From contig JBMFRC010000004.1 of NCBI GenBank assembly GCA_049968235.1, positions 190,013 through 254,012 of the forward strand: a stretch of DNA of 64,000 bases, read 5' to 3'. Positions within the stretch are counted from its first letter, which is position 1, and each line of letters begins with the position of its first letter. Source of the DNA: Candidatus Hydrogenedens sp. GTDB lineage: Bacteria > Hydrogenedentota > Hydrogenedentia > Hydrogenedentales > Hydrogenedentaceae. Made by a program: the position numbers and the translations under genes. The notes under the pieces were generated by a model, which searched no databases, was not told the DNA's origin, and saw only the letters and a program-made list of their open reading frames with translations. Below, piece after piece: positions 2,756 through 26,109 of the stretch.

Positions 2756-2799
2756 AAATGGAATAAAAAATATCCTATCTTGAAATATAATTATAAAGT

Positions 2800-8805: not shown

Positions 8806-10269
8806 ATGAAACATGTTGTATTTGTAATGCCACCATATCCTTATTCTCGTTCCATTGGACAGGAGGAAGGAAAAAGGCAAATTGGGTTAATGCCGCCTTT
8901 AGGTGTTGGGTATCTTACTGCATACTTAGAGCGGACAGGGAAATACCAATGTTATTTTGTCGATGCAGTTGCGGAGAGGTTATCTATTGAGGAAACTGTT
9001 TCTCGTATTCTATCATTCGAACCGGATGTAATTGGAATTTCATCTTTTACGACTTTTCTTCTCAATACTTCATATCAACTTGCACGAAGATTAAAAGAAG
9101 AATGTCCTTCGATTCCATTGTTAATGGGAGGTCCTCACACTACTTCTTTCGGGGAACAGGTGTTGAAAGACTGTCCGTATATTGATTATGTCATTCCGGG
9201 AGATGCTGAAGTTCCTCTTTTAGAGTTATTAGAAAAGATTTTTTGTGGAGATATACCGGATAAGGTAAAAGGCATCATTTATAAAAATGAAAAAGATGAA
9301 ATCGTAGATACGGGCTGTTCTATCCCTGTAGATGATATTGATACTCTACCTTTCCCCTCACGACACATTTATAACCATGAGTTATATGAGCCTTTACCGA
9401 GTTTAAGTCCCAAACGCCCTGCCATGTCGATGATTACAGCACGGGGTTGTCCATGGGCACGATGTAAATTTTGTTATCAGGGAGGGAAATATGCATCTCC
9501 ATTTCGTCGTCGGTCTCCGGAAAATGTTGTGGCAGAATTAAAATACCTTATTGAAAAATATAATGTAAAAAATATTGTATTCTGGGATGATAATTTTTGT
9601 ATCTTTCCTGAATGGATACATAAATTTTGCTCCCTTATAAAACAGGGGAAAATAAAATTAGATTGGTCTGTTTTATCGCGTGTAAATACAGTAACACCGG
9701 AAATGTTAAATGAAATGGCAGAAGTAGGTTGTTACAGTATTCAATTTGGTATTGAATCCGGAAATGAGGAAATACTTAAACTTATTCGAAAAGGTCACAC
9801 ATTAGAACAATGTCGAAATGCAGTCCGCTGGGCAAAATCCGCTGGTATGGAGACAAGGGCTTTCTTTGTTTTGGGTTTTCCTACGGAGACCCCAGCAATG
9901 AGTGAAGAGACTATTCGTTTTGCATGTGAATTAAATATCGATTATGTTGTTTTCTTTTCGTATTATGTAGCACCCGGAACACTTCTTGCCGAGATTGCTA
10001 TGAGAGAAGGGCAGTGTTTTGAATTTATAGGACAACATTTACCTTCTTACCTTCCTAATACCTATCCTGATTTGGAGACATTAACAAAGAAAGTACAATC
10101 CGCCTATCGAAGATATTACCTCAGACCTCGATATTTCGCTCGAACTATTACAAGAACGATTCGTCGTCCCCATCATTTGAAAAATCAAATAAAGGCATTT
10201 AATTATTGGCTTGGATTGAGTTTAAAAAAATGGACTCACAACAAAAATTCAACAGTTAACATAACCTAA
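8806..10269 (+). CDS. B12-binding-domain radical SAM protein (class B-like).
   Basis: N-terminal Rossmann-like B12-binding region (PPLGVGYLTAYL...DVIGISSFTT). The cysteine cluster reads GCPWARCKFC, i.e. CX4CX2C rather than the canonical CX3CX2C. The radical SAM core follows. Confidence 0.75.
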   Translation: MKHVVFVMPPYPYSRSIGQEEGKRQIGLMPPLGVGYLTAYLERTGKYQCYFVDAVAERLSIEETVSRILSFEPDVIGISSFTTFLLNTSYQLARRLKEECPSIPLLMGGPHTTSFGEQVLKDCPYIDYVIPGDAEVPLLELLEKIFCGDIPDKVKGIIYKNEKDEIVDTGCSIPVDDIDTLPFPSRHIYNHELYEPLPSLSPKRPAMSMITARGCPWARCKFCYQGGKYASPFRRRSPENVVAELKYLIEKYNVKNIVFWDDNFCIFPEWIHKFCSLIKQGKIKLDWSVLSRVNTVTPEMLNEMAEVGCYSIQFGIESGNEEILKLIRKGHTLEQCRNAVRWAKSAGMETRAFFVLGFPTETPAMSEETIRFACELNIDYVVFFSYYVAPGTLLAEIAMREGQCFEFIGQHLPSYLPNTYPDLETLTKKVQSAYRRYYLRPRYFARTITRTIRRPHHLKNQIKAFNYWLGLSLKKWTHNKNSTVNIT

Positions 10270-10285
10270 AAATAAAGGATAAACT

Positions 10286-11755
10286 ATGAGAACAAATATG
10301 TTCTTTTATTACTTCATAACAGGATTTCTATTCTCAATAATCTTTCAACAAATAGGAATAACCGAAGAAATATATAATATAGGAAACCGACGAGAAATTT
10401 TTATTGATAATAAATTAATTGATAAATTAGAGAATATATCATTTAAGTTATGTGAGCCTATTCCTGCTGAGAAGGTTTTATATTTTGATAAACCGTGGGA
10501 GGGTAAACACAGTGGATATGTGACCTTAATCCATGACCAAGACATTTATCGCCTCTATTACAGAGGACTTCCTGTTTCAAAAGCCGATGGCTCAAATGCA
10601 GAAGTTACCTGTTATGCAGAAAGCACAGATGGTATTCATTTCATTAAACCATCTTTGGGACTCTTTGAAATAGCAGGTTCAAAAGACAATAATGTAATTC
10701 TTGCTAATGATCCACCTTTTTCACATAATTTTGCTCCTTTTATAGACGAAAAGCCCAACATTCCCAAGGAAGAACGATATAAAGCAGTGGCAGGGACTTT
10801 TGATAGTGGTTTATATACCTTCGTTTCCCCAGATGGAATCCGATGGCGGAAATTATCAGAGAAACCTATACTTAAAGGGGCATCATGGAAAGATTTTGCC
10901 TTTGATTCTCAAAATGTAGCTTTTTGGTCTATTTTAGAACAAAAGTATATTTTGTATTTTCGCACCTGGAATGGTCCCAATCAAGAATATCGTTGGGTAA
11001 GTCGAACAACCAGTTCAGATTTTTTAAATTGGGAAAAACCTGTAGTAATGGATAAAGGAAATGCACCATGGGAACATATATATACCAATCAGACAATCCC
11101 TTATTTTAATGCTCCACACCTATATGTTTCAATATCAGCCCGATTTGTCCCTGGATGTAAAGTATTATTACAAGAAGAAATAAAATCCATAGGGGTTGAT
11201 ATAGATTACAGTCATGATTGTTCCGATGTAATATTCATGAGTAGTCGAGGGGATAATATATATAGCCGATTTTTTTTAAATGCTTTCTTAAAACCTGAAT
11301 ATCCTTTAGAAAACTGGGTATCCAGAACCAATTATCCTGTGCGAGGCATTGTTCCTGCAGGTGATTATCAAATGGCTTTTTATATTCAAAAAAATTATGC
11401 ACAGGACACTGCATATATTCAGCGATATTTACTTCGTCTGGATGGTTTTTCCTGTCTTTCCGCAGGATATGCAGAAGGTATTATTACCACTGTGCCGTTA
11501 ATTTTCAAAGGGGATAATCTGTTTCTTAACTTTGTTACCTCTGCTATAGGTTATATAAATGTAGAAGTTCAGGATATAAATGGAAATTCCATATCGGGAT
11601 ATGAGTTTAGTAATTCCATACCGTTGAAAGGAAATCGGATTAATTTCAAAGTATCATGGAATGATACTAATAATTTATCTTCATTGCAGGGAGCACCTAT
11701 TCGATTATCTTTTAAGATGAAAGATGCAGATTTATATGCAATCCAATTTAAGTAA
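10286..11755 (+). CDS. Exported hypothetical protein with BNR/Asp-box-like repeats; possibly a sialidase-like beta-propeller or glycoside hydrolase fold.
   Basis: Hydrophobic N-terminal signal. Three S-x-D-G/x-x-x-W/F motifs (STDGIHF, SPDGIRW, SSDFLNW). No catalytic assignment is possible from the sequence. Confidence 0.45.
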   Translation: MRTNMFFYYFITGFLFSIIFQQIGITEEIYNIGNRREIFIDNKLIDKLENISFKLCEPIPAEKVLYFDKPWEGKHSGYVTLIHDQDIYRLYYRGLPVSKADGSNAEVTCYAESTDGIHFIKPSLGLFEIAGSKDNNVILANDPPFSHNFAPFIDEKPNIPKEERYKAVAGTFDSGLYTFVSPDGIRWRKLSEKPILKGASWKDFAFDSQNVAFWSILEQKYILYFRTWNGPNQEYRWVSRTTSSDFLNWEKPVVMDKGNAPWEHIYTNQTIPYFNAPHLYVSISARFVPGCKVLLQEEIKSIGVDIDYSHDCSDVIFMSSRGDNIYSRFFLNAFLKPEYPLENWVSRTNYPVRGIVPAGDYQMAFYIQKNYAQDTAYIQRYLLRLDGFSCLSAGYAEGIITTVPLIFKGDNLFLNFVTSAIGYINVEVQDINGNSISGYEFSNSIPLKGNRINFKVSWNDTNNLSSLQGAPIRLSFKMKDADLYAIQFK

Positions 11756-12846: not shown

Positions 12847-15060
12847 TTATCTGCCTTCACTTCCTAATTTTGCTGTTAAATATTCCTCAAAAAAAGACTC
12901 AATAAAAATTCCTTTATCTTTCAATTCATAATATTCCCGCAATGCTTTTTTATAATTCTTTTCTATGAAAATGGAATCAAGAAGATTTTTCCATGACCGG
13001 TATTGCCCATTTTCACATTGTATAGCGGAATAGAACCAATTTTTTGCTTCTTCCTCATTACCTTGAGATAGTGAAATAACACCTAAGGCAATTCGTGGAA
13101 GAGCAATATCAGGATTTATATGGATAATAAAGCGAAGTTTTTCTTGTGTGGTTTTCATATCGCCGTTTATCGATGTCATTATAGCATCAAAACATAGGTA
13201 TGCCAATTTCAAATCTTTATCTAACAGAATCGCTTTTTGAAGGAAATATTCTTTATATCCCGGATTTATGTTTCTCTGACTTATCTGATAATATCTCAGG
13301 GATTTTGTAAGTGTGGTGATATTTCCCCCACTTTTGAGAGTATTATATAAATTCTGAAATTGCAATTTTTGTAATGGGTCATTATTAATCAATTTCTCAA
13401 TTAGATACATTGCACACTCTTTGTGATTGGTTTCGACATTGGCAAGGGCAAAATCAGATATTGTAAATTTAAGGGAATCATTTTCAAATTCTTTGCCTGC
13501 CTGATGAGAATATCCACCTCCTTGTTGGAATAGTACTTTATATAATCGGATAGGTTCTATACCGTATAAATCATAAGTTTCATATTGAATTTGGTTGTTA
13601 CTTAACAAACATTCCAATTCAGGGGAACCAAAATCGCCGAAATAAAAGGAGATATAAACAAACCATATTTTATCCGACAAACAACTTGATTTTCTTTGAA
13701 ATAGTTCATGAATAATTGGAATGAACGTGCTTATATCTTCAACAAAGGACACCGGTATTTTTTCATTTTTAAGATTAAATGTAAAGACATCTTTATTGAT
13801 TGCTTGATACACAAATACAGGGGAGTTCTCTTTATCTGAATTTTGTTTTTCTATAAAATGAACTGTATCTTGCCAATTTGTTCTTTGGGGTCCCGGAAGA
13901 GTAATGATTAATTGATAACACAATATTAATATCAAGAAGATTAATAGTAAATAACCAATAATTTTGTGCTTATTTATTTTTATTAAACTACCATAAAGCA
14001 AATATATTGCAAGGCTACAATATAAGGTATATCTTGGGAATATACATGGTCTCCATATAATAGACAGGACATATAATAATAACGGGGGGATTAAGATTAT
14101 TAACAATAAAAGAACTATTCCATACCTTAATTTTAATTCACTTTCATTATCAACATGCCTAAAAACAAACCTAAAACTTAAAATCATCACTATTGTAGTT
14201 ATAACCAATAGAGAAGCATCAAATATAGAATGTATATTTATAAAATATTTGGGGATAACTTCTTCTATAACTCTTACCTGATATGTCATTTTTACTGCGT
14301 CATCAGCAAATAAATCTCCAAGAAATTCAAATAGTGTCGGTATTTTAAACCAGGAAGACTGTTCCGATGAATAATAATGTATACTTGATATATACACGAT
14401 TGAGGGAATACTAATTAATATTTGAGATGCAATAAAGTAGTATTTCTTATAATCGCTTGTATAAAAAACATAAAATATCCATACTATTTCGATTATAAGG
14501 ATAATTACAGCAAAAGGATGTGTCCATAATAAAAGGATGTTTATTAATGTTAAAGTAATCCAATTTTTTCTATTACGATTCTCAGAATATAAAAGCAAAA
14601 AATATATGGACAGAGTAAACAAAAGTGTTAATAAAACATACATTCGTATTCCCTGTCCAAAAAAACGATGAATCGGAGATATAGCGAAAAAAAATCCCGC
14701 CAACAAGCCCATCTTTTCTGAATTGAATCTTCGACCTATAAGGAATAGAACAGGGATAGTCATTACACTTAACAGAATGGATAGTAAACGCAGACCTATA
14801 ACAGAGGGGGAAACATAATGCCAGAAAAGGTATTCGAGTATATAATAAACAGGCATAGTGGCAGGGTCATAAAGAGGATTTAAGAAAAGGAATTCCTTTA
14901 ATGATTCAGCATTAATATGCACTAAACTGGAATACTCATCCCACCAGACCGATTCATCTGAAATGTTATATATACGAATAACAAAAGCCAATAGGACAAT
15001 AAGTGAACAATAAACTAACACGTGTATTTTATGTTTTTTTTGTCCTTTTATTTTTTCCAC
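12847..15060 (-). CDS. GT-C fold membrane glycosyltransferase (PMT_2-like, subfamily B with a WWDEY loop motif) carrying a C-terminal TPR-like region.
   Basis: After the first TM helix comes WWDEYSSLVHIN (a DE motif in loop 1, typical of PMT/ArnT-type GT-C enzymes). Many TM helices follow, then TPR-like C-terminal repeats. Convergent with the gene at 11772, with a 1-nt gap. Confidence 0.7.
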   Translation of the reverse strand: MEKIKGQKKHKIHVLVYCSLIVLLAFVIRIYNISDESVWWDEYSSLVHINAESLKEFLFLNPLYDPATMPVYYILEYLFWHYVSPSVIGLRLLSILLSVMTIPVLFLIGRRFNSEKMGLLAGFFFAISPIHRFFGQGIRMYVLLTLLFTLSIYFLLLYSENRNRKNWITLTLINILLLWTHPFAVIILIIEIVWIFYVFYTSDYKKYYFIASQILISIPSIVYISSIHYYSSEQSSWFKIPTLFEFLGDLFADDAVKMTYQVRVIEEVIPKYFINIHSIFDASLLVITTIVMILSFRFVFRHVDNESELKLRYGIVLLLLIILIPPLLLYVLSIIWRPCIFPRYTLYCSLAIYLLYGSLIKINKHKIIGYLLLIFLILILCYQLIITLPGPQRTNWQDTVHFIEKQNSDKENSPVFVYQAINKDVFTFNLKNEKIPVSFVEDISTFIPIIHELFQRKSSCLSDKIWFVYISFYFGDFGSPELECLLSNNQIQYETYDLYGIEPIRLYKVLFQQGGGYSHQAGKEFENDSLKFTISDFALANVETNHKECAMYLIEKLINNDPLQKLQFQNLYNTLKSGGNITTLTKSLRYYQISQRNINPGYKEYFLQKAILLDKDLKLAYLCFDAIMTSINGDMKTTQEKLRFIIHINPDIALPRIALGVISLSQGNEEEAKNWFYSAIQCENGQYRSWKNLLDSIFIEKNYKKALREYYELKDKGIFIESFFEEYLTAKLGSEGR
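14728..15033. repeat. About 300-bp segment duplicated at 22608..22890 (roughly 90% identity, one internal indel).
   Basis: Direct DNA comparison, e.g. gatagtaaacgcagacctataacagagggggaaacataatgccagaaaaggtattcgagtatataataaacaggcatagtggcagggtcataaagaggatttaagaaaaggaattcctttaatga occurs in both copies. Confidence 0.8.
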
Positions 15061-15364
15061 AAGAAAGCCTTAAATCACAAGTTATAAGATAGAATTACAT
15101 ACTTACAGTTTAGCAATTGGGTGTTCGTGAATTCCATAGCCCCTTTGTAGCACGATGAATAAATATAAATGTTCAATATCAACAGGAAATAAGACATTTA
15201 TAAAAGTATATAGCAATAAGAAATAAGATAAAGCAGATAATATTAGAAAGCAAGAAGGAGAAATATATACTTGCGATTAAGTATCACCTAAATGCGAATA
15301 CTATTCTGCAAAAACGAAAGATGATTAAAGAACCGAAAGAACCTATAAAACAATCGTAAAACTG

Positions 15365-15983
15365 TTGTATCTACGCCCGAGGATGATAATGAAAGTAGAA
15401 GAATTGAGAAAACTTGATGATAAATCATCACGATCCCATAAACTACGAACCGTGTTCAATCTGAAGAATGACCAGAAAGCAGAGAATGTTAAAGCATTTT
15501 TAGATGAGTTGATGGCAGTCTATCCTTATCCAATACGAATGATACCGACCAATAATGGTAAGGAATCTACTAACTGCTTCTGCCGGGGTAGAAAACAACC
15601 CTCCGGTAAATATATCTTTGGGCACCTCTGTCAGAGACTCGTTATAGGATACTGACTGACTTTCCCTATACACCGGAAATAAATGGTTAGTAGAAGGTTT
15701 TAATGGTATAATAACAGAAATATTAAAACAACATTATTTCACGGATTACAAAAAGTCGATGGATAAATCAAACCAGTATACCTATTGTTATAATTATGTT
15801 CATAAACAACAATTATTAAACAACAAAAGCCCAGCAGAGGCATTAGGTAAATGGTATAATAAAAAATCTTTCCTTTTTCGCCCTCTTTTATTCTATCAAA
15901 TTACATCTTTTCAAAACCTAGCAATTAATTACTATGAGAAAGAAAATCAGACGCAAAGTTATCCCTCAAACCTATTAAACTGA
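15365..15983 (+). mobile_element. Degenerate IS transposase remnant (rve/DDE integrase core, IS3/IS481-superfamily-like). It is 5'-truncated and frameshifted, so it is a pseudogene.
   Basis: Fragment 1 reads ...IRMIPTNNGKEST (the DNG-x-EF region). After a frame change, a second frame reads LTDFPYTPEINGLVEGFNGIITEIL...YNYVHKQQLLNNKSPAEALGKW, matching the PQTNGxVERFN...YNxxRPHxaLgxxTPxE C-terminus. No intact ORF and no N-terminal HTH/DD region. Confidence 0.6.
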
Positions 15984-18249
15984 GTACTTGTTGATACCGC
16001 ATTTCCATTATCTTATTATTAGAGATAACAGGTTCTTTATGCAAAATCTTTCTAAGTTCTTGTTCACTCTTCCATTTATATGGGAAACAGCCCAAGGGAA
16101 GTATACATTGCGAATCTTCCAATTTATGTTTCGCAAAATGGTTTAAGTAATGAGCTGGACAAAAACCATAGTTCATCAATTTTTCAGATTCTTTGGCGAG
16201 AGATCTGTAGTCCTTACTCTTCAAAGCGTTCCAAATAGGTCTCATTGTATAGTAGAAAAATATATTTAACCTTTTGCACTTATTAAATACTTTTTCTGCC
16301 TCATCAGGATTAGTTTCCAAAAGAGATAATGCATATGGAAAACTTATCCAGGAGATAATATCTATTCCTGGCTTTAATAAATTTTCAATCCAGCAAGATT
16401 TCCCAATGGATATCCAATCCATAGCCACCTGAATATACGAGCCTCTTTCAGGTGTCTCGTCTGGATTTATATAGTGGGACAAAATAATCCCATCTAAAGA
16501 ATTTACCTCATTTTCAAAGCATAGTTTAAGGTTGGCCATCAATTCCTCAGGAAGTTCCTTTTTTAACCGAAAGTCTGAAGTTTTTCCGTCAACAATATTC
16601 TTAAGGTTATCTTCTACTCGAAACCCGAAATACGCTAAACCTTCAAAAAATGGAAATTCCTTCACAGTAAAATAAATAAGGTGATTCTCCTCCCACTCTT
16701 TCCTTATTGACGGTGCTAATATCCCATATTCTGTCCTCAGAACGACCCACACCGTATATTCCGAAGGAAGATGCTTAATAAGGTATACGAGGGCATCAGT
16801 GGCTAAATGGAGGGACCCCGCAGAAATTAAGACAGGCTCTTTCTGTTTTAGTCTGGAGCACCAGTGATAGTAAAAAATTGGTGTAATCTCCTGATGAGCA
16901 ATAATGAATATATCTTTACCGCTTACATCTTGGGACAAAAGGTCTGTGCATTCATTCCAGGCAGTATATGGCTTCCCTTGTTGATACATAAGATATTGAA
17001 GAAAAATATATCCCAGCACAACCAAAACCAATAATACCTTCAAAATTCTCTTAGAAGAAGCCCACCTAAAAACCAAATTAATCAGTAGCCCCCACCGAAT
17101 AATCAAAGCAGGCAAAAGAAAGCGGAGTGTCATTACAGGAATCTTTGACACCAGGGTAAATCCTACAAAAAACAATGGCATCAAAAACGCTAAACATATT
17201 AGCGTAAACTCCGGAAGTTCGTCATGTATTGTCTTATCCTTGATACGAGAAAACATCTCCACCAAAAAATAAAATAGTAGAATCAACTCAAAGACAACAT
17301 TCCCGCCCTTAAGGGAATAAACCAATATTTTGTCGACAGCACTTGCAATCATATTAGTAAAATCACTATAGCCAAAGATGGAGAAAATTAAAATTGCAAA
17401 CGATGCAAATCGGGGAACTTCATCATCATAAATCCCAAACACATAATTAAAAATAGTAAATAAACAAATTTGAGGTGTATATGCTACATTAGAAGGCATA
17501 GCAAACAAATCGAGATAAAGCAAAACTAAACAACCCATAAGTAGATTTAACAAACCGAGCATCAGAATTTTTTTCGACCTGTTATTGAGGAAAAAGTAAA
17601 TGATAATCCCCGCCTCAAAGAAGAGTAACCACATATAAATATAATAGGTCAGCAGTAATAAGAGATTTACAAAAATTAGGAGTAAACATTGAGATGTTCT
17701 TATTTCTCCTTCATTCCTTTTGATAAGATTAAAAAATAAATAAAGAGAGCAGATAGAAAGGGAAAAACCCGACGCATGAGGTCTTAAAAGCATACTGTAC
17801 CATAAAAAAGTTGGAATAGTAGCGATTGTCATTGCGGATAAAAAACAAACAATTTCATTCCGGAAAAAAATCTTGAATAATCGGTAGCCAAAAATAACAG
17901 TAAATATACTTGCAATTATAGAGAACAATCTAAAAGATTCCGGAGATATACCCAGCAACTTCACAAATATATAAAATATAGTCAAATAAACAGGGGCAAC
18001 TTCAGGTCCCTGCGTTCCCACCATTTGGATAAAAGTGTACAAATCCTGAACCTTCAAATATGCTACTCCCCAAAAATACTCATCAAACCATATAGAAGGC
18101 TTTTGAGATAAGAACAAAATTAATAAGCAGGTGAGAACTACAAGAATACCTATCGGCAAATACCTTTTTTTTACTAATATCAAAGAGTTATCCATACCTA
18201 TCTCCAAATTACATAATATCTCGAATTCGTATGAGGTCCATAATCTCAC
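15925..18249 (-). CDS. GT-C fold membrane glycosyltransferase (PMT_2-like, subfamily B, WFDEY motif) with a distinct Cys-containing C-terminal domain.
   Basis: WFDEYFWGVAYL after TM1, then polytopic. The C-terminal roughly 330 aa is shared with the 18209 paralog (…HFAKHKLEDSQCILPLGCFPYKW). Confidence 0.7.
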   Translation of the reverse strand: MRLWTSYEFEILCNLEIGMDNSLILVKKRYLPIGILVVLTCLLILFLSQKPSIWFDEYFWGVAYLKVQDLYTFIQMVGTQGPEVAPVYLTIFYIFVKLLGISPESFRLFSIIASIFTVIFGYRLFKIFFRNEIVCFLSAMTIATIPTFLWYSMLLRPHASGFSLSICSLYLFFNLIKRNEGEIRTSQCLLLIFVNLLLLLTYYIYMWLLFFEAGIIIYFFLNNRSKKILMLGLLNLLMGCLVLLYLDLFAMPSNVAYTPQICLFTIFNYVFGIYDDEVPRFASFAILIFSIFGYSDFTNMIASAVDKILVYSLKGGNVVFELILLFYFLVEMFSRIKDKTIHDELPEFTLICLAFLMPLFFVGFTLVSKIPVMTLRFLLPALIIRWGLLINLVFRWASSKRILKVLLVLVVLGYIFLQYLMYQQGKPYTAWNECTDLLSQDVSGKDIFIIAHQEITPIFYYHWCSRLKQKEPVLISAGSLHLATDALVYLIKHLPSEYTVWVVLRTEYGILAPSIRKEWEENHLIYFTVKEFPFFEGLAYFGFRVEDNLKNIVDGKTSDFRLKKELPEELMANLKLCFENEVNSLDGIILSHYINPDETPERGSYIQVAMDWISIGKSCWIENLLKPGIDIISWISFPYALSLLETNPDEAEKVFNKCKRLNIFFYYTMRPIWNALKSKDYRSLAKESEKLMNYGFCPAHYLNHFAKHKLEDSQCILPLGCFPYKWKSEQELRKILHKEPVISNNKIMEMRYQQVLSLIGLRDNFASDFLSHSN

Positions 18250-20458
18250 CGTATCGGGTTTCTATTTTTTGATTCACTGTTTTATTAGGCTCTTTAAGCA
18301 AAATATCCCTTAATCTACTCTCACTATTTGTAGTGAATGGGAAAACACCTATGGGGAGAACACATTTTGAACCTTCTAACTTATGTTCCGCAAGATGATA
18401 AAACACATAAGCAAAAAAATAACCGTCATTTAGGAGCCTCTCAGATTCTTTCTTCAATAATGAATACTCATTCTTTTTAAGGTATTCCCAAATATTGGAA
18501 AACACAAAAGCAAAGTAAGGATTTTGCCCTTTTAGTCTCCGAAATATTTCCTCAGCCACATTCTGATTTTCCAACTCTGATAAAGCATACCCAAAAGTTA
18601 CCCAAGAAGTTAGTTTCTGATATTGCTTTAAAAGAATTCTTGCCCAATCCGACTTTCCTAATCTTATAAGGTCGAGGATTATATGTATAACATTAGTCAT
18701 GCCTATTTCATCCCCAAAATCCCTATAGCGAGCCAATATAATTTTCTCTTCCTCCGTAAACTCATTCTTAAGATTAGCCTGGAGCAGGGGCACCAATGGA
18801 CTAGACGAGTATAAGGATTCTTCTACATAAGGCGACTCTTCCTTCACCTTAAGATTTTCCTCGACGGAAAATATATAACACAAAATCCCTTCCCAAGAAG
18901 GGAATCTTGCCAAGGAGTATCTTAAATTGTATTCATCATAAACGGCGGTCATTTTTTGTTCGAAACTTGGGTCCCACTTAGTATTGTATATAATGCATAT
19001 CTTATGTTCAGGGGGAAGTTGCTTAACCAAATAGAGGAGGAAATCCAGAGAAGTATCTAAAGAATCCGAGGTAAAGATAGAAGGAAACTTTCTCCTTGTC
19101 TTTTCCCGCCAATTGTATTTGAACACAGCACAATCCACATCTGAACCACAAATTATGATGTCATCTTCTCTGAGGTTTTCATTAACATATTGAACGCATC
19201 CTTCCCAATCCGTATAAATACTATTTGCTCTAAACAAAAGATATTGATGTAATGCCCATATTAAAATAACAGCAACAACAAACCACTTTAGTAGAACTTT
19301 TTTAGTATTCCAATTATTCAACATAATAAACAACCAACAGAACTTTGCAACATAACAAACTAAAATATATCGAGCCACCAGAACATTACCACCAGAAATA
19401 AAAGACCAGCCGGCGAAAACAATAGGGCATACAAAGGCAAGTAAGTATATAAATAACAGTTTTTCATCGAATGTCCAAAAGCCTTTTATCAATTTCCAAG
19501 TTGTAGCTAGGAACGAAGCGAAAAGTACCAACGCAATCAATCCGCCTCCAACATTTAAAACTACTAACGGAGCAACATCACATATCTTTTGAATCATCGG
19601 TGGAGGTACATTCGGAGCAATAATCGGCTGAATATAAACACTCCAAGAAACATAAGAAGGCACTTCAAAATTTCTCACCCCAAAAATTATTTCCAACACC
19701 TCCAAAAATGAGTAATTTAAGGGAAGTGCCAAAAACTGGTTGCCATAAAAAACATAAACCAAATACATAAAACCTAAAGAAAAAACTATCAGGTTGAGGA
19801 TAGTAGGAAGTAAATACACAAATTTATCTCTAATTACCCTTAGGAAAAGCAAAAAAATCTCAACAGCAATAATCCAAATAAAGAGATAGTGTGATAAAAC
19901 CATAAAAATATTAATTACAGGAAGAGAAAAAATAAAAAAAAGTGAATTTTTCCTCTCCGAAGACAAACAGCGAATAAGTAAATATAATGAGATAAAAGCA
20001 AACATCTGAACTATGGAGTGATACCTCAAAGAAAAGGCATTCCACAAAAATAGGGGAAAGGATACAAATAATAAACTCGCGGCGAGAGCATATCTTCGTG
20101 GTAACAAACTTTTTGCAATAAGGTAGATAAAATTGGCACTCACAATGTTAAAAAGAACTATTACCCATCGAAAAGATTCCACTGAAACACCTAACCTTCC
20201 ACAAATTAAATAAAGGAAAAAAAAATAAAGAGGAGGGCCCTGGGGGCCATAAGATAAGATATACAGATAAAAAGTAGTGAAACTCGGAACATTTAGGTAG
20301 TCTAACCCTCCTAAATACTCATCTCCCCAAACAGACGGCTTTTGAGCGATTAATAATATAAATGTTAATGTTATAATCGACAATAATAAGTGTTCAATAC
20401 TTCCTATCCGACGGGACAAGTTCCAATATTTACCTATATATATCATGTTAAAATCCAA
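18209..20458 (-). CDS. GT-C fold membrane glycosyltransferase (PMT_2-like, subfamily B, VWGDEY motif); tandem paralog of 15925.
   Basis: VWGDEYLGGLDYL loop motif. Polytopic. C-terminal domain homologous to that of 15925 (…HLAEHKLEGSKCVLPIGVFPF). Its 3' end overlaps the start of 15925 by about 40 nt. Confidence 0.7.
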   Translation of the reverse strand: MDFNMIYIGKYWNLSRRIGSIEHLLLSIITLTFILLIAQKPSVWGDEYLGGLDYLNVPSFTTFYLYILSYGPQGPPLYFFFLYLICGRLGVSVESFRWVIVLFNIVSANFIYLIAKSLLPRRYALAASLLFVSFPLFLWNAFSLRYHSIVQMFAFISLYLLIRCLSSERKNSLFFIFSLPVINIFMVLSHYLFIWIIAVEIFLLFLRVIRDKFVYLLPTILNLIVFSLGFMYLVYVFYGNQFLALPLNYSFLEVLEIIFGVRNFEVPSYVSWSVYIQPIIAPNVPPPMIQKICDVAPLVVLNVGGGLIALVLFASFLATTWKLIKGFWTFDEKLLFIYLLAFVCPIVFAGWSFISGGNVLVARYILVCYVAKFCWLFIMLNNWNTKKVLLKWFVVAVILIWALHQYLLFRANSIYTDWEGCVQYVNENLREDDIIICGSDVDCAVFKYNWREKTRRKFPSIFTSDSLDTSLDFLLYLVKQLPPEHKICIIYNTKWDPSFEQKMTAVYDEYNLRYSLARFPSWEGILCYIFSVEENLKVKEESPYVEESLYSSSPLVPLLQANLKNEFTEEEKIILARYRDFGDEIGMTNVIHIILDLIRLGKSDWARILLKQYQKLTSWVTFGYALSELENQNVAEEIFRRLKGQNPYFAFVFSNIWEYLKKNEYSLLKKESERLLNDGYFFAYVFYHLAEHKLEGSKCVLPIGVFPFTTNSESRLRDILLKEPNKTVNQKIETRYGEIMDLIRIRDIM

Positions 20459-20761
20459 TCATCATCATTATCATAGAGTATAAAACCCCAACTAAATAGG
20501 AGTAATATATGAAGAGAAGTTTTAACAAATCAATTCAATAGTACTATACAACAAATCGTAAATATCCATCTATAAAACTACTAATAACAACTAAGTTCAA
20601 AAAAATTTCAATTAGAGTGGTAAGAACATAAAACAAAAATCTGTCAGTTTGTAATGGTAGTATTTGGAGGATGAAAATTATAATACACGTTTTGTAGTAT
20701 AATAAAGGAATATATTGTGTTATGTTTGTGTTTTATTGAAAAAAAGGGTAAAAGATAGTTT

Positions 20762-22300
20762 ATGAATGTTTTATTAGTTTCACTCCAAAAAAATTTTAGT
20801 ATTATTGGCTTAAAACTCTTACACGAGATATTACGCAGAGAGGGCTTTAATTCTAACATTTTATACATACCGGGCTTCCCACAGGATTCAAAAAATCTCG
20901 ATTCTCTAAAAGGATATATAAAAGATTTTTCACCAGAATGGATAGGGGTAAGTCTTACATCAACAGAGTATAAATATGCAAGGGATTTTACATTATTTAT
21001 GAAAAAAAACTTTGACATCCCGGTAATATGGGGTGGAGTAGAACCTACTGTTTCGCCCGAGCACTGTATAGATTATGCTGACTATGTGTGTATAGGAGAA
21101 GGGGAGAAAGCAGTTATAGATATTTCAAATGTTATAAAAAATGGTAAAAAGTTAGAAAATATTAACAATTTAGCATTCAGAGATGGAAAAGAAATTCATA
21201 GAAATCCATTAAACCCTTTAATTGAGAACTTGGATGAGTTACCTTTTATACCTCGTGTACCCTCTAACTCATTCTTGTTATACAAAGGTAAATTACTAGA
21301 ACTAACTCATAAACTGGTTAGAAAAAATACAGTACTCCACGCAAGCATTTACAGAGTCATAAATAGCCGCGGATGTCCAATGCACTGTACTTTTTGCATA
21401 AATTCCTTCTACTTTGATTTGTATCCCACCTATCATTTTAGGACTGCTTCACCTAAACACATAATAGAAGGTATAGTCCGTGGTCTGCAGGAGCCACTAC
21501 CAGTTGCAGTTATATCATTTTTAGATGAAAACTTCTTCGCCCGCAAAAAAGAAGACTTGGACATGTTCTTCAAACTATACAAGGAAAGGGTAAACATCCC
21601 GTATATCATCTATTCTTCCCCGAATTACATCACCGATGAAAATCTTGAAAAGGCAATTGATTCAGGACTACGAGGTATTCAAATAGGTTTACAGAGCGGA
21701 AGTGAATCAGTCTGCAAAAACATTTACAAAAGGACTGTCTCCATCAAAAAATTCTTGGAAAGTGTAGAAAGAGTAAAAAGATATGATGTTGTCCCTAATA
21801 TTGATGTCATCTGCGATAACCCATTCGAGACACTCGAAGATGACTTAGCGACAATCGAAGTTTTGTGCAAAATTCCAAAACCTTACTTTTTCTATCTGCT
21901 TTCTTTAACATTCTTTGAAGGTATCCCTCTGAGAAAAATAGCTGAAGAAAAAAAACCCGAAGTTCTTCATGACCCACATGTAAAAGATATCCTCATAACC
22001 AAACCTACAACCGTAAACAGACTAAAACATTTAGCTGGCATATCTCCGTCTAAAATTGTCATGTTCTTCAGCAAGTGGTATAAGAAAAATCCTGATTCAG
22101 TAATACTAAAAATACTTGTAGAAATTTGCTTTTGGTTCACACTAATTTTCATCCAACCATTTGTATTTCTCTGGATACTTTATATCTTTAGCAAAAAGTC
22201 TATAAAGCAAATGTTAAAGTATCTTTACTATTTTGTCGATTTCCGTATATTCAAAACCTTCAACTTCTGGCGAACTTCTAAAGACACAGCCCAAACATAA
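20762..22300 (+). CDS. B12-binding-domain radical SAM protein with a hydrophobic C-terminal tail.
   Basis: N-terminal B12-binding-like region. Canonical cluster RGCPMHCTFC (CX3CX2C). C-terminal TM segments (ILVEICFWFTLIFIQPFVFLWILYIF). Confidence 0.75.
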   Translation: MNVLLVSLQKNFSIIGLKLLHEILRREGFNSNILYIPGFPQDSKNLDSLKGYIKDFSPEWIGVSLTSTEYKYARDFTLFMKKNFDIPVIWGGVEPTVSPEHCIDYADYVCIGEGEKAVIDISNVIKNGKKLENINNLAFRDGKEIHRNPLNPLIENLDELPFIPRVPSNSFLLYKGKLLELTHKLVRKNTVLHASIYRVINSRGCPMHCTFCINSFYFDLYPTYHFRTASPKHIIEGIVRGLQEPLPVAVISFLDENFFARKKEDLDMFFKLYKERVNIPYIIYSSPNYITDENLEKAIDSGLRGIQIGLQSGSESVCKNIYKRTVSIKKFLESVERVKRYDVVPNIDVICDNPFETLEDDLATIEVLCKIPKPYFFYLLSLTFFEGIPLRKIAEEKKPEVLHDPHVKDILITKPTTVNRLKHLAGISPSKIVMFFSKWYKKNPDSVILKILVEICFWFTLIFIQPFVFLWILYIFSKKSIKQMLKYLYYFVDFRIFKTFNFWRTSKDTAQT

Positions 22301-22607
22301 GAAAATCAACCTGGTCTCAAGCACAATTAGAATATTCGATAACGACAAGTGTATTGGGTACCACGAAGAAATTCAAAATTTAGCAAGTTAATATCTAAAA
22401 CTAAAAAAACTCCTTTCATCAGTCTGCGAATAATCAATTCATTTAATTAAAAAGTATTCAGCCCACTTTATTACCACTTCACAATTAAAATAAAGAATAT
22501 ATATCCAATATTAAGAGGACGATATGAGAATTTAAGAAACGATAGAATTTGAAGGAGTTTACTACCCACCTTCTGCTGAGTAAAAAAAACAGCCCTCAGG
22601 AAAATAT

Positions 22608-22890
22608 ATCTTCGACCTATAAGAAATTGGACATAGATAGTAAACGCAGACCTATAACAGAGGGGGAAACATAATGCCAGAAAAGGTATTCGAGTATATA
22701 ATAAACAGGCATAGTGGCAGGGTCATAAAGAGGATTTAAGAAAAGGAATTCCTTTAATGACCCAGCATTTATATGAACTAAACTGGAATACTCATCCCAC
22801 CACCCTGATTCATCTGAAGTTTTATATATACAAATAACAAAAGCCAATAAAATAATAAGCAAACAAAAAACAAACACTTGTATATTATGT
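22608..22890. repeat. Second copy of the roughly 300-bp GT-C 5'-end segment (partner of 14728..15033).
   Basis: Direct DNA comparison, as for the partner copy. Confidence 0.8.
22617..22877 (-). pseudogene. Truncated 5' fragment (about aa 14-100) of a subfamily-B GT-C glycosyltransferase gene; a duplicate of the 5' end of the gene at 12847..15060.
   Basis: The translation VFVFCLLIILLAFVICIYKTSDESGWWDEYSSLVHINAGSLKEFLFLNPLYDPATMPVYYILEYLFWHYVSPSVIGLRLLS is nearly identical to the N-terminus of the intact paralog. It terminates after MSNFL. The ORF track start is a GTG. Confidence 0.7.
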
Positions 22891-23389
22891 CTCTTAGGTA
22901 ATAATCCGGGATTTTGGATTATTTCCCCTGTCTTATCCTTCCAGTAAATCCCATTAATATTCTGTAATGACTCTTTTTCCGGAAAAGTTTCTATAATCTG
23001 CTTTAATGCAATTTCGCCTTCCCCGGGACCAGAATATCTATATCTACATCGTCAAAGACACCTTTTCGGACTGCAGAAGCATGTGGTCATCCTACAATAA
23101 TCCATGCAGAAGGACAGGCTGTTCTAAGCATAGGAATTAATGAAGGCAATAAATAGGCAAAGGTTGTAAAAGTAGATATACCTATAATATCGGGATTAAA
23201 TTCTTTAATACGCCCGCATAATTCTTCTACGCTATAATTTTCTAATCTTTGATTTAATATGCCTATATCAATATCTCTTAACGCCCTTCGGAGATACGCC
23301 GAAAGATAAAGTAAACCCATAGGAGGTGTGGCTAATGGATATAAAGGCCTTCGTAAACCCAGATTAACTAAAAACAATCTTTTCTTCAT
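22878..23389 (-). pseudogene. Decayed 5' portion of a third B12-binding radical SAM gene. It has an in-frame stop and a frameshift, and it is fused in frame to the GT-C fragment at 22877.
   Basis: MKKRLFLVNLGL...PPMGLLYLSAYL...NPDIIGISTFTTF aligns to the N-terminus of the 8806 protein. After the stop (IIVG*), PHASA...IDILVPG and then, in another frame, GEGEIALKQIIETFPEKESLQNINGIYWKDKTGEIIQNPGLLPKRHNIQ. These continue the alignment (GGPHTT...IDYVIPGDAEVPLLELLEKIF..IPDKVKGIIYKNEKDEIVDTG..PFPSRHIYNHE). Confidence 0.6.
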
Positions 23390-23439
23390 TTATCTCGGAC
23401 CTAAATAGTTAAAATTATACACCAAATTTTTTTATCATT

Positions 23440-24612
23440 TCAGATAGCATGGAAAAATTTTTCATAGGTATGTGCTGGTATAGCATGAAATTTACATAAA
23501 ATCCATACCAACCATTTAAATTTTCGAAGTAAGGGATAATACGAGGGATAGTCTGTAAAGTACTTATTGGGTGCATTAATAATTGCCTCAAATTCTTCAC
23601 GACTTATACCTTGTTTTCTTAAACAATGTTCAACTCGTTCTTCATCTTCAAAAAATGGAACTTCTCGTAACGCTCTTAATGCGGATTCGCGAGATATTAC
23701 ACCCGTTCTGACTTTTGCAGATAGTTCTACTACACGCCAGTCAAAACCGAATTTTCTCCGGGCATAATAGTAAACCAGAGTAAACAGTTCATTATCCAGG
23801 TGATGTTGCCCTGTATCCTGCCAATCAAATTTCTCTTTTAATAATTTCTCTACTTTTTCCCCCGTATCATCATAGTAATTGGTAATATTTATTACACGGA
23901 TTCTTTTCCAGAGAATCCAATAAATCATATCCTTTAATTCTACATTTTGAAAATGCTTTAACGGTATTGTGCAATATCGTTTGACAATAGCACGCGTATA
24001 TTTCCCGTCAATGTAGTTCCATTTCAATGGCGTTATCCCTTCTTCACGGAAGGAATGACTTAAAATAATGTAATGGACATTCTCGGCAACTGCAGTTCGA
24101 TATAAACTACTTGCAATGCCTATATCATCTGTTAGGTCAATATAAGGGACACAGGCGCGGATAGTTGCATTAGTCAATTCTCGTGATTCAGGCCAGTCCA
24201 TAATTATTGTATGTAATTCTACATCTAATTTATCGCAGAGTTTGGCAAGGTTTGTTTTGGCAATTTCCGAGTCCCAACCGTTATCAAAATGAACAGCCAG
24301 AGGACGCAATTTCATTATTTCCTTAACATAATATAAACAATAAGAAGTATCTCTCCCACCACTGACCCCAACTATACAATCGTATTTTTTTTCTTTTCCA
24401 TCGTTTCTTATCTTCTCTGCAATTTTTTGCAATATCATTGCTCCTTTTTCGCCGGTAGGAAAACGCCTATCCAATTTATCATGTATGTGGCAGAAATTAC
24501 ATATACCTTGATGATCTAAATAAACTCCCGGAATAGATGTATCCATAACACATCGTTTGCATAATGTTTTATCTTCATTTTGTCGAAACATATATCTACC
24601 AACTCTATTCAT
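23440..24612 (-). CDS. N-acetyl sugar amidotransferase (PP-loop ATP pyrophosphatase; WbuX/WbpG/LfnA/PseA family).
   Basis: N-terminal Cys4 zinc ribbon (CKRCVMDTS...CNFC). PP-loop VGVSGGRDTSY (SGGxDS). Followed by hisF/hisH paralogs, as in known acetamidino-sugar loci. Confidence 0.8.
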   Translation of the reverse strand: MNRVGRYMFRQNEDKTLCKRCVMDTSIPGVYLDHQGICNFCHIHDKLDRRFPTGEKGAMILQKIAEKIRNDGKEKKYDCIVGVSGGRDTSYCLYYVKEIMKLRPLAVHFDNGWDSEIAKTNLAKLCDKLDVELHTIIMDWPESRELTNATIRACVPYIDLTDDIGIASSLYRTAVAENVHYIILSHSFREEGITPLKWNYIDGKYTRAIVKRYCTIPLKHFQNVELKDMIYWILWKRIRVINITNYYDDTGEKVEKLLKEKFDWQDTGQHHLDNELFTLVYYYARRKFGFDWRVVELSAKVRTGVISRESALRALREVPFFEDEERVEHCLRKQGISREEFEAIINAPNKYFTDYPSYYPLLRKFKWLVWILCKFHAIPAHTYEKFFHAI

Positions 24613-25427
24613 AATCGTGATAATTCTAAATCAATCGGTTTTTTGGGGTCTCTTTTCCGAACATGTTCAGGTCGAAAATGCTCTAATAATTGTTCTTCTG
24701 TAGGATAAGTTATTAATACTGTTCTTCGAGGACCGTAAAAAAGGAAGAATGCCCCACATGCTACTGCAGAAACTCCCGAAAAATAATAGGCATCCGCTAA
24801 ATCTTTTACAGAACCTGCACCTCCGCAAGCAATTACAGGAATCTGGACATTATCTACAATCACTTTTATTAATTCCAAATCATATCCTTCAAGAGTCCCA
24901 TCTCTATCAATACTTGTAATTAATATTTCACCTGCTCCTTCTTCCTCCGCTCTTTTCGCCAATTCGATTGGATTCAATCCTGTTGATTTTCGTCCTCCAT
25001 GTGTGAATACTTCATATTTGCCATTTACTCTACGGACATCAATGGATACTACAATACATTGTCTTCCAAACTGTTCAGCGGATTTTTTTAATAAATCGGG
25101 AACCTCAATTACAGAAGTGTTAAGGACCACTCTATCAGCCCCTGCATTCAGTAATTCTCTTATGGTATTAATATCACGAATTCCGCCTCCAACTGTAAAC
25201 GGCATGGATGTTTCCGCAGATATTTGTTTCACTATCTCTATTTCTGGAGAGCGATTTTCAAGTGTTGCTACAATATCTAACAAGATTAATTCATCTACAT
25301 TATGTTGATTAAAAACACGAGCTGCATTAATGGGACAACCCACATATTTCGGATTGGTAAATTGGATTGTTTTTTCCAATCCCCAATGTCGTAATAAAAG
25401 GACAGGTATCACTCTAACTTTTAGCAT
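24609..25427 (-). CDS. Imidazole glycerol phosphate synthase cyclase subunit paralog (HisF-like; WbuZ/HisF2-type, LPS-associated).
   Basis: (beta/alpha)8 HisF signatures (VIPVLLL..., DELILLDI, GGGIR, VIACGGAG). 4-nt overlap with the upstream gene. Confidence 0.85.
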   Translation of the reverse strand: MLKVRVIPVLLLRHWGLEKTIQFTNPKYVGCPINAARVFNQHNVDELILLDIVATLENRSPEIEIVKQISAETSMPFTVGGGIRDINTIRELLNAGADRVVLNTSVIEVPDLLKKSAEQFGRQCIVVSIDVRRVNGKYEVFTHGGRKSTGLNPIELAKRAEEEGAGEILITSIDRDGTLEGYDLELIKVIVDNVQIPVIACGGAGSVKDLADAYYFSGVSAVACGAFFLFYGPRRTVLITYPTEEQLLEHFRPEHVRKRDPKKPIDLELSRL

Positions 25428-26109
25428 TCAATACCTCGTTTAAAAAATTTTGTATTAACATTGTACCACTGATATAACTCTTTTCGGGATGAAATTGAGT
25501 TCCATAAATATTCTTGTTTTGATATAAGGAAATAAATGGAATTCCATATTCCGTTATTCCCAGTTTTCCATTAATTTCCTTAAATGGAACAAAATAAGAA
25601 TGAGCAAAATAAAAATTAGGGGTTTCTATCATTCCGGATAACAATGATAATTCTTCTTTATAAACCTTTACATCGTTCCAACCGATATGTGGTACGCGAA
25701 TAGGGTCTTTAACTACATCTCGTATATGACAAACTCTTGCAGGTATCCATCCTAATCCCTTTGATTTTCCTTCCTCACTGAATTCTGTCATAATTTGAAA
25801 GCCTAAACAAATACCCAAGACGGGCTTTTTTAATTCTAATACATAATGATTTAATCTTCTGGTCAAGCCTATCTTTGTAAGGAAATCCATAGCACTTCCG
25901 CAAGCACCAACTCCAGGTAAGACAATTGCATCGAATTTATCCAACTCAATTTCATTACTAACAACTTCAATAGCAACTCCGGTTTTAGCAAAACAACGAT
26001 ATACTGAATGTATATTTCCTGCGGAGTAATCAATAATTCCAATTTTTATATTTTTATCTTGAAATATTTTCATTCCCACGGAAACTATCCTTGTTTTGTG
26101 CCACCACAA
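25414..26109 (-). CDS. Glutamine amidotransferase subunit paralog (HisH-like; WbuY/HisH2-type).
   Basis: Class I GATase: GVGACGSAM catalytic Cys region, and His/Glu in ...GTQFHPEKS. Confidence 0.85.
   Translation of the reverse strand: MWWHKTRIVSVGMKIFQDKNIKIGIIDYSAGNIHSVYRCFAKTGVAIEVVSNEIELDKFDAIVLPGVGACGSAMDFLTKIGLTRRLNHYVLELKKPVLGICLGFQIMTEFSEEGKSKGLGWIPARVCHIRDVVKDPIRVPHIGWNDVKVYKEELSLLSGMIETPNFYFAHSYFVPFKEINGKLGITEYGIPFISLYQNKNIYGTQFHPEKSYISGTMLIQNFLNEVLNAKS

Follow-up and report, generated by a model that had tools for sequence, protein, structure and literature searches.

Our analysis indicates that the minus-strand locus at 22608-23389 is, in all likelihood, a dead and functionless relic, the remnant of the first copy of a gene pair made up of a B12-type radical SAM gene (R) and a GT-C glycosyltransferase gene (G). 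It lies in what we take to be the sugar-coat (surface-glycan) gene island of its host, Candidatus Hydrogenedens, and was analysed within a stretch of 64,000 nt that we refer to as the window. Read along the minus strand, the relic runs from R codons 1-165 across a joint at 22896/22895 into codons 8-112 of a second, truncated copy of G (G′). Two lesions interrupt its R part and one its G′ part, and the radical SAM core is gone. As such it is an ordinary pseudogene in the course of decay, within a glycan island that recombines, and would not surprise a specialist. An earlier note on this DNA had described the locus as chimeric and decayed, with a radical SAM 5′ part fused to a duplicated 5′ fragment of a GT-C gene, and blastx, Pfam and blastn searches bear out that description, with small corrections. 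The coordinates of all features are collected in Table 1.

Table 1. Features of the relic, its parent genes and the insert (positions in the window)
Feature	Coordinates	Strand	Description
G	12847-15060	-	Intact 737-aa GT-C-fold glycosyltransferase with C-terminal TPR domain
R3′	15110-15166	-	Last 18 codons of R (IFIHRATKGLWNSRTPNC) and the stop codon, directly upstream of intact G
Insert absent from relatives	15167-22607		7,441 nt; IS481 relic, GT-C2, GT-C3, B12-rSAM, spacer, IS481 fragment
IS481-family transposase relic	about 15365-15900	+	C-terminal 40%, several frameshifts and stops
GT-C2	15925-18249	-	
GT-C3	18209-20458	-	
B12-rSAM512	20762-22300	+	512 aa; followed by a 250-nt spacer (22301-22551)
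IS481-family transposase fragment	22552-22612	+	KEFT...KKQPSGKYIF; abuts the 3′ end of G′
G′	22608-22895	-	G codons 8-112: TM1, first external loop with WWDEYSS, TM2-3
100% identity tract	22636-22760	-	125 nt; equals 14780-14904, 7.9 kb apart
R5′	22896-23389	-	First 165 codons of R, B12-binding domain only
Frameshift (-1)	23021-23024	-	G4 run where G5 is needed; one G lost
TGA nonsense codon	23087-23089	-	At the first Gly of the GGPH motif; orthologues read IVGGPHAS
WbuX-type N-acetyl sugar amidotransferase	23440-24612	-	TIGR03573, 219 bits against a cut-off of 203

The R frame opens with an ATG at 23389, 50 nt downstream of the amidotransferase gene, and runs for 100 codons to the TGA. When the relic was compared by blastx with the proteins of the window itself, radical SAM homology passed through this TGA, then shifted frame and finally entered G′ in frame. 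The segment that follows the frameshift (PGEGEIALKQ...NPGLLP) continues directly into the N-terminal region of G (72% over 110 aa, E = 2e-45), with G′ read in the same frame. Both interruptions of R had been noticed in the earlier note, and they can be stated more exactly: the stop after IIVG is a TGA in place of the first Gly of GGPH, and the frameshift reflects the loss of one G from a run of five. At the frameshift site the window reads GTC CCG GGG AAG GCG against GTT CCA GGG GAA GGA in the related lineage L004. Orthologues carry CCA GGG GAA or CCA GGT GAG at this position, and restoring the lost G gives the translation ILVPGEGEIALKQII, identical to the orthologues. The frameshift is common to all three assemblies that contain the relic. 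The TGA is the youngest lesion of the relic and is polymorphic among co-occurring strains, since the assembly GCA_049969095.1 (L028) has GGA at this site and is otherwise identical over 22608-23389.

The repaired translation of R5′ matches the Pfam domain PF02310 (56 bits against a cut-off of 32) and is 85% and 76% identical at the amino acid level to the intact 479-aa orthologues of L005 and L004, respectively, in the best tblastn segments. Homology to R stops at codon 165, and the PF04055 radical SAM core with its CxxxCxxC motif, present in the R orthologues (SSRGCPYQCMWC), is absent. Class B radical SAM proteins combine PF02310 with PF04055. The intact orthologues in L005, L004 and L029 have both domains, whereas the relic keeps the N-terminal B12-binding domain, including the GGPH region, lacks the core and is interrupted. 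Because the core is absent, the relic is a fragment of a class B member rather than a member, and so cannot be such an enzyme. The earlier note was thus right to recognise a B12-radical SAM 5′ part, while its length of roughly 190 aa has to be shortened to 165 codons. The similarity of KRHNIQ to SRHIYN of the protein encoded at 8806, through which that longer alignment had been drawn, is spurious: KRHNIQ lies in the GT-C part and corresponds to KKHKIH in G.

Species-representative genomes were scanned with the repaired chimera, which yielded three close loci, and further contigs were reached through orthologues of G. In L005 and L004 the amidotransferase gene is followed by an intact 479-aa R, directly by G and then by the same convergent block that occupies 12845-4997 in the window. 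The same intact order, amidotransferase-R-G, is found in L029-L032. Altogether, R stands directly upstream of G in four lineages with a full-length R (L004, L005, L029-L032 and the decayed L035), and in related Hydrogenedens genomes the R-G pair sits after the WbuX/HisF2/HisH acetamidino-sugar genes. The amidotransferase gene, the conserved upstream neighbour of R, has the same orientation as the relic, and its synteny is kept in L004-L006, L029, L033 and L034. These comparisons indicate that the ancestral order was amidotransferase-R-G, with R and G in the same orientation, and that the R of the relic is best regarded as the positional orthologue of the conserved 479-aa gene. It is not, as had been supposed, a mere paralogue of the gene at 8806-10269, whose product is the closest in-window paralogue of R with 39% identity to R5′ over 110 aa. 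As for a unitary pseudogene, intact orthologues are found in L004, L005 and L029, disabling lesions are found here, and one of these, the TGA, is missing in L028.

The other end of R survives as the R3′ stub in front of intact G, where 15 of 18 residues are identical to the R proteins of L005 and L004 (tblastn, E = 1e-6). Upstream of 15167, tblastn detected no R homology beyond these last 18 codons, and Smith-Waterman scores against L006, L005, L004 and R5′ of the window itself did not exceed those of shuffled sequences. The window aligns to L005 and L004 from 33354 or 25227 to 22892, skips about 880 nt, which are the remainder of R, and resumes at 15166-15172. Considering L004, L005 and L006 together, the alignment extends up to 22892 or 23259 before resuming at those same positions. 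The intervening 7.4-kb insert is absent from all seven related lineages (L004, L005, L006, L029, L033, L034 and L035).

Decay of R is not confined to the window lineage. In Ca. H. terephthalaticus (L006), R has lost an internal stretch that reaches from codon 46 to about codon 462, and its remainder is badly decayed; L033 and L034 share this deletion. L035 has a full-length R with two frameshifts and one stop. R has accordingly been inactivated independently at least three times, including in at least two lineages besides that of the window.

At the joint between the two parts of the relic the window reads CCT/AAG AGA CAT (the slash marks the joint), where R orthologues read CCT ATG ATT and G orthologues AAA AAA CAT, so that microhomology amounts to 1 nt at most. 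Since R lies directly upstream of G in the relatives, the simplest account of the joint would be a deletion of about 1.0 kb, covering R codon 166 through G codon 7, inside an ancestral R-G tandem. The earlier note had instead attributed it to homologous recombination between paralogous glycosylation cassettes, by which a radical SAM paralogue was joined to a GT-C fragment. The island does hold several B12-radical SAM and GT-C paralogues, and homologous exchange does occur there, but R and G are unrelated sequences that offer no more than that single nucleotide at the junction, and even the closest paralogue of R in the window is only 39% identical to it. Moreover, R and G are ancestral neighbours: as the positional orthologue, R always adjoins G, and no exchange is needed to bring the two together. 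We therefore consider cassette recombination a very unlikely source of the joint and retain the deletion within the R-G tandem.

G, the source or partner of the duplicated fragment, is represented by an AlphaFold2 model built on 38 homologues (pLDDT 89.8, pTM 0.88). Its top 31 Foldseek matches in the PDB consist entirely of GT-C enzymes (lowest E-value 3e-6) and include STT3, PglB, AglB, ArnT, DPY19, Pmt4, ALG9, ALG3, AftB and PimE; a PDB search with the sequence of G gave noise only. At the level of fold, the model thus supports the GT-C label of G. Against PMT_2 (PF13231), G scores 21.2 bits, below the cut-off of 26.1, and the paralogue GT-C3 scores 32.2 bits. Most homologues of G carry PF13231 together with TPR repeats, and some are named GT39. 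Within the WWDEYSS motif, D41 is invariant and E42 nearly invariant among the 38 homologues. G shares the fold and the acidic pair in the first external loop with GT-C enzymes of the PMT_2/GT39/ArnT type that have a C-terminal TPR domain, whereas G′ keeps only codons 8-112 of 737 and has suffered a frameshifting deletion in addition. This is far too little for glycosyltransferase activity.

We next consider how G′ relates to G. As the earlier note had stated, G′ is an in-frame duplicate of the 5′ region of G, although it spans codons 8-112 rather than amino acids 14-100. The DNA identity of about 90% with an internal indel that had been reported was also recovered when the alignment was run: 22633-22890 matches 14777-15034 at 92.2% over 258 nt without gaps (blastn, E = 5e-106), and beyond this lies a deletion of 25 bp. 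This deletion sits between two ACTATC repeats, of which the survivor is at 22636-22641, and shifts the frame. Past it there are about 34 more homologous nucleotides, 85% identical, which end at 22608.

Identity along this alignment is bimodal, at 84% (113 of 134) over 22894-22761, complete (125 of 125) over 22760-22636 and 81-88% past the deletion. The tract and its flanks differ sharply, with mismatches at none of 119 positions in the former and 28 of 170 in the latter (Fisher p = 1.7e-7). Conservation does not account for the tract, because orthologues of G differ by 12-27% over the same 125 nt. The pattern suggests that the tract was produced by recent gene conversion with intact G, although consensus blending by short-read assemblers is conceivable as well. 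Over the 5′ 135 nt, G′ and G are 84% identical to each other, while the orthologues of sister species are 79-84% identical to G′ and 79-82% identical to G. Since the 5′ parts of the two copies are as distant from each other as from the sister clade, G′ is not a recent copy of the resident G. The proposal that the fragment was duplicated from this GT-C gene thus holds as far as homology goes, and fails as to recent origin from the resident gene, with which G′ is identical over the 125 nt only.

The exact 125-nt repeat, 7.9 kb away from its twin, and the fact that all of these sequences come from metagenome assemblies raise the question of whether the relic is an assembly artefact, that is, a collapsed or chimeric repeat of the 12847-15060 region. 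The sequence on either side of the tract argues otherwise, as it differs from G: upstream the identity is 84%, and downstream there are the 25-bp deletion and the IS fragment. Furthermore, the structure of the relic is common to the source assembly, GCA_049971155.1 (L001) and GCA_049969095.1 (L028), each of which shows the R-G′ fusion, the frameshift, the deletion of 25 bp and the junctions that lie downstream. The L001 contig, on which a 100-aa R product is on record, is 99.92% identical to the window over 20349-25311, with four SNPs that all fall outside the relic. L028 spans 21488-24396 with three SNPs, one of which is the GGA in place of TGA at 23089. Both of these assemblies cross the relic and its junctions unbroken. 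Because three assemblies, each with its own SNPs, agree, the relic is not mis-assembled. The mis-assembly that the earlier note had named as grounds for refuting its reading is not borne out, and we regard an artefact as extremely unlikely.

Given that repair of the frameshift brings both parts of the fusion into one frame, the locus could conceivably be a functional recoded gene, in which TGA read-through and a programmed frameshift produce a B12-binding domain on a membrane anchor. It would suit such a gene that terminator prediction gave nothing in the stretch from the amidotransferase gene to the relic; for the same reason, we predict that the relic itself is probably transcribed by read-through of the operon. 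Against a recoded gene, the TGA is missing from the sister strain and is therefore a fresh mutation rather than a conserved recoding site, the radical SAM core is missing, G′ carries a frameshifting 25-bp deletion of its own, and a scan of the window found no Rfam element. The chance that the locus is a functional recoded gene is so slight as to be nearly negligible. A tRNA scan of the window likewise found nothing. Recoding of UGA as Gly was considered separately and rejected: TGA is an ordinary stop in the window, where it terminates 8 of 39 ORFs and occurs in frame at none of 19,630 codons, and the sister strain has GGA. Our search of the literature on Hydrogenedens found nothing that bears on the locus.

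Between the R3′ stub and the distal end of G′ lies the insert, which in plus-strand order opens with about 200 nt of unassigned sequence. The earlier note had pointed to a nearby IS remnant as a clue to how such rearrangements arose, and this remnant is real. Its stitched translation matches NF033577 over profile positions 167-283 of 284 (E = 2e-12; 47 bits against a cut-off of 224), the Pfam rve_3 match is weak, and the stitched peptide matches 15461-15878 by tblastn. The involvement of IS elements gains weight from a second IS481 fragment that abuts the end of G′ and is recognised solely through its similarity to the first relic (75% over 61 nt against 15560-15618, same orientation, E = 7e-6 within the window). 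At the junction between G′ and this fragment the two overlap by 5 nt (ATCTT). Taken at face value, the alignments place IS481-family debris of the same orientation at both edges of the insert, with G′ ending against one of the pieces. In sequence, the two relics resemble the DDE transposase (rve) core of the IS481 family, though no more survives than the C-terminal 40% of one copy and 20 codons of the other, and there is no intact IS copy.

No terminal inverted repeats or target-site duplication were recognisable for the IS481 copies. A pair of candidate IS ends at 15170-15186 and 15987-16001 was rejected, as its right arm falls in the codons for the conserved RYQQV of GT-C2. In the 22301-22551 spacer, global alignment to the IS relic did not rise above shuffles and so revealed no more IS sequence, and the GC composition of the insert is not distinct. 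The three genes GT-C2, GT-C3 and rSAM512 are found as a unit in another context on four metagenome contigs (L024-L027), where rSAM512 is 82-83% and the GT-Cs are 52% identical at the amino acid level. Apart from the three genes, the flanks of the module on those contigs share nothing with the window.

The state of R gives an indication of when it died. Over R5′, dN/dS against L005 is 0.04, equal to the value between intact orthologues over the same codons, although dS is saturated and the ratio is a rough one. When changes were polarised with the outgroups L005 and L004, the first 130 nt of R showed 6 derived changes in the window and 24 in L006 (p = 0.0014), and the R3′ stub showed 2 and 10 (p = 0.04), while the intergenic spacer had 4 in each. 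The dN/dS value and these relative-rate tests indicate that strong purifying selection on R persisted in the window lineage until well after its loss from the terephthalaticus clade, and that R died here only recently.

The divergence of the two G copies then leaves two possibilities: a duplication that dates back to the split from the terephthalaticus clade, or the arrival of one of the copies from another lineage. Derived states in the 5′ part are split about evenly between the two (8 versus 11), and both are equally far from the sister clade, so that neither can be called foreign. When proteins were searched for a donor of the G′ allele, the sole match was this relic in a sister assembly, and the N-termini of the orthologues P0006-P0013 showed no decisive affinity to either copy. 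We favour import because R died recently, because the insert carries IS debris and its module is found elsewhere, and because the island contains a clear case of recent import, at 10150-11120, where the window is 97-99% identical to L029 against 65-85% elsewhere.

The older alternative is a tandem duplication in situ that gave two functional R-G-type units with four GT-C genes in a row, of which the left G′ and R were recently destroyed by deletions, while conversion from time to time would have kept stretches of the copies similar. It fits with the 84% identity of the 5′ 135 nt, a divergence that matches the sister-clade split, and the evident gene conversion between the copies could also explain the fresh appearance of R3′. 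Nevertheless, a second unit or an insert is present in none of the seven related lineages, the IS481 debris at both edges and the occurrence of the module as a unit elsewhere point to insertion, and the non-coding R3′ stub would have had to be rescued repeatedly by conversion. We therefore judge an old duplication to be unlikely and keep to the import of one copy.

Under import we infer the following order of events. The module would have brought along, or given rise to, a direct duplication of about 440 bp, from R codon 462 to G codon 112, on both of its sides. One of the G copies probably entered with the module from another Hydrogenedens lineage by homology-anchored integration, given that the copies differ by 16% while R died recently; a flanking duplication of about 440 nt is what such integration of module DNA carrying this segment would leave. 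An illegitimate deletion of about 1.0 kb may then have joined R codon 165 to G′ codon 8, the frame being kept by chance, while IS-associated deletions would have shortened the IS copies as well as G′ at its distal end. The later lesions are the 25-bp deletion between the 6-bp repeats, the loss of one G and the change from GGA to TGA, which is still polymorphic; recent gene conversion with intact G would have homogenised the 125 nt.

A separate observation concerns the 3′ end of R. The boundary of the insert, at R codon 461/462, lies within about 2 nt of the deletion endpoint in the R-deleted clade (L006, L033 and L034): the window reads ...ACATTT/ATA TTT ATT CAT CGT and the deleted clade ...CTT A/T ATC TTT CAT CGT. 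The model of deletion and import does not explain this shared boundary, though the rate tests indicate independent events. A block just downstream of the boundary (AATTGCTAAACTGTGAGTA) is conserved in all lineages, and the decayed R of L035 likewise switches reading frame near codon 46. Possible causes of the shared boundary include a hot spot, trimming down to a constrained G promoter, or conversion that keeps R3′ fresh. It is a quite doubtful idea, which we put forward as speculation, that the 3′ end of R at codon 461/462 is a preferred point of breakage or exchange for Hydrogenedens glycosylation cassettes; if true, the swapping of glycan modules would be shaped by a mechanism directed at this site or by a strict functional limit, for example the G promoter.

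Gene remnants at IS-associated rearrangement joints are known from surface-polysaccharide clusters, such as O-antigen, capsule and S-layer glycan loci. The present locus has in common with these clusters pseudogenes that are truncated and fused, IS debris bordering an inserted glycosyltransferase module, deletions between short repeats, mosaic identity produced by recombination between lineages, and glycan-modifying genes that vary among close relatives. It differs in that the host is an uncultured Candidatus Hydrogenedens (Hydrogenedentota), that there is no intact IS copy, and that B12-type radical SAM and GT-C/TPR genes are involved instead of the usual GT-A/GT-B and Wzx/Wzy.

In public annotation the pieces of the relic, of 100 or 128 aa and of 81 or 86 aa, are treated as 'cobalamin-dependent protein' and 'hypothetical protein', and are really one dead fusion. 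The repeated loss of R in sister lineages suggests that the glycan modification to which it contributes is dispensable or under varying selection. By way of its sister genomes, the locus offers a small, well-dated case of the turnover of a surface-glycan island in an uncultured phylum, in which the gain of a module with IS debris would have been followed by illegitimate deletion, gene conversion and, finally, point lesions that segregate among co-occurring strains.

The ORF at 10286-11755 encodes a conserved protein of 489 aa; in every related locus it has the hydrolase on one side and the rSAM gene on the other. It has no Pfam match, and its match in NCBIfam, to beta-1,2-mannobiose phosphorylase, is weak and falls far under the cut-off (E 2.6e-5). 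Within this ORF, about 1 kb of the window (10150-11120) is 97-99% identical to the distant Hydrogenedens lineage represented by locus L029, whereas outside this stretch the identity to that lineage is only 65-85%; this indicates a recent homologous import into the island from another lineage. The sister (terephthalaticus) clade, represented by L006 and L033, is 78-88% identical to the window across the same positions. A stretch of 58 nt (GGGTCATTAAAGGAATTCC...CTATGCCTG) is the same in L029 and in both window copies of the GT-C glycosyltransferase gene, the intact G and its partial copy in the relic, while the sister clade differs from it at many sites. This stretch may be a further small recombination tract within G.

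Coordinates of the features, in the window unless another locus is named
Feature	Locus	Position	Detail
58-nt identical stretch	window, G	14846-14903
58-nt identical stretch	window, partial copy of G	22702-22759
58-nt identical stretch	L029	about 10160-10220
Loss of R	L006	2990-3190
Loss of R	L033	9731-10001
Loss of R	L034	9814-10080
Loss of R	L035 (GCA_964387125.1)	1-1517
Shared R resumption point	window	15110-15166
Shared R resumption point	L006	about 3126-3185
Shared R resumption point	L033, L034		directly 5' of G
Adjacent B12-binding / Radical_SAM calls	L002 (GCA_029776995.1)	2453-3874	149 aa + 299 aa
Adjacent B12-binding / Radical_SAM calls	L003	138-1387	218 aa + 187 aa
GT-C2	window	15925-18249
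GT-C3	window	18209-20458
WbuX/AglZ-HisF2/HisH acetamidino trio	window	23440-26109	in the 1-35000 island

The B12-rSAM gene R has been lost more than once among relatives. The sister-clade loci L006, L033 and L034 have in common a deletion from codon 46 to codon 462, and R in L035 is full length, with apparent frameshifts near codons 46 and 340 and an apparent in-frame stop. R resumes at codon 461/462 (within about 2 nt) both at the boundary of the window insert and at the internal deletion of the terephthalaticus clade, yet relative-rate tests point to independent events. B12-binding and Radical_SAM halves are annotated as separate neighbouring genes in two further loci (L002 and L003); these pairs are split or frameshifted B12-rSAMs in contexts unrelated to the window.

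Pieces of the relic (window 23087-23389 and 22617-22877) have been entered as proteins in the public annotation, where the names are 'MAG: cobalamin-dependent protein' (P0001) and 'hypothetical protein ACP5QY_12645' (P0004, 81 aa). Since L028 (GCA_049969095.1) lacks the TGA, its annotation gives the first piece a length of 128 aa.

The GT-C paralogues of the insert, GT-C2 and GT-C3, overlap by 41 nt. The last 12 residues of GT-C2 (DNFASDFLSHSN), encoded by sequence adjoining the IS481 relic, are missing from the orthologues in L024 and L026. GT-C2, GT-C3 and rSAM512 are kept together in four JGI metagenome contigs (L024, L025, L026 and L027) in another gene neighbourhood, with a homologue of the window ORF 42716-44044 about 2.5 kb downstream of the module.

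Window positions 1-35000 hold at least six genes that combine PMT_2/GT-C with TPR, as well as three B12-rSAM-type genes that are intact. Synteny with L029 assigns three more genes there, one to a carbamoyltransferase, one to a DegT aminotransferase and one to an LPG_synthase_TM protein. This region is a large surface-glycan island.
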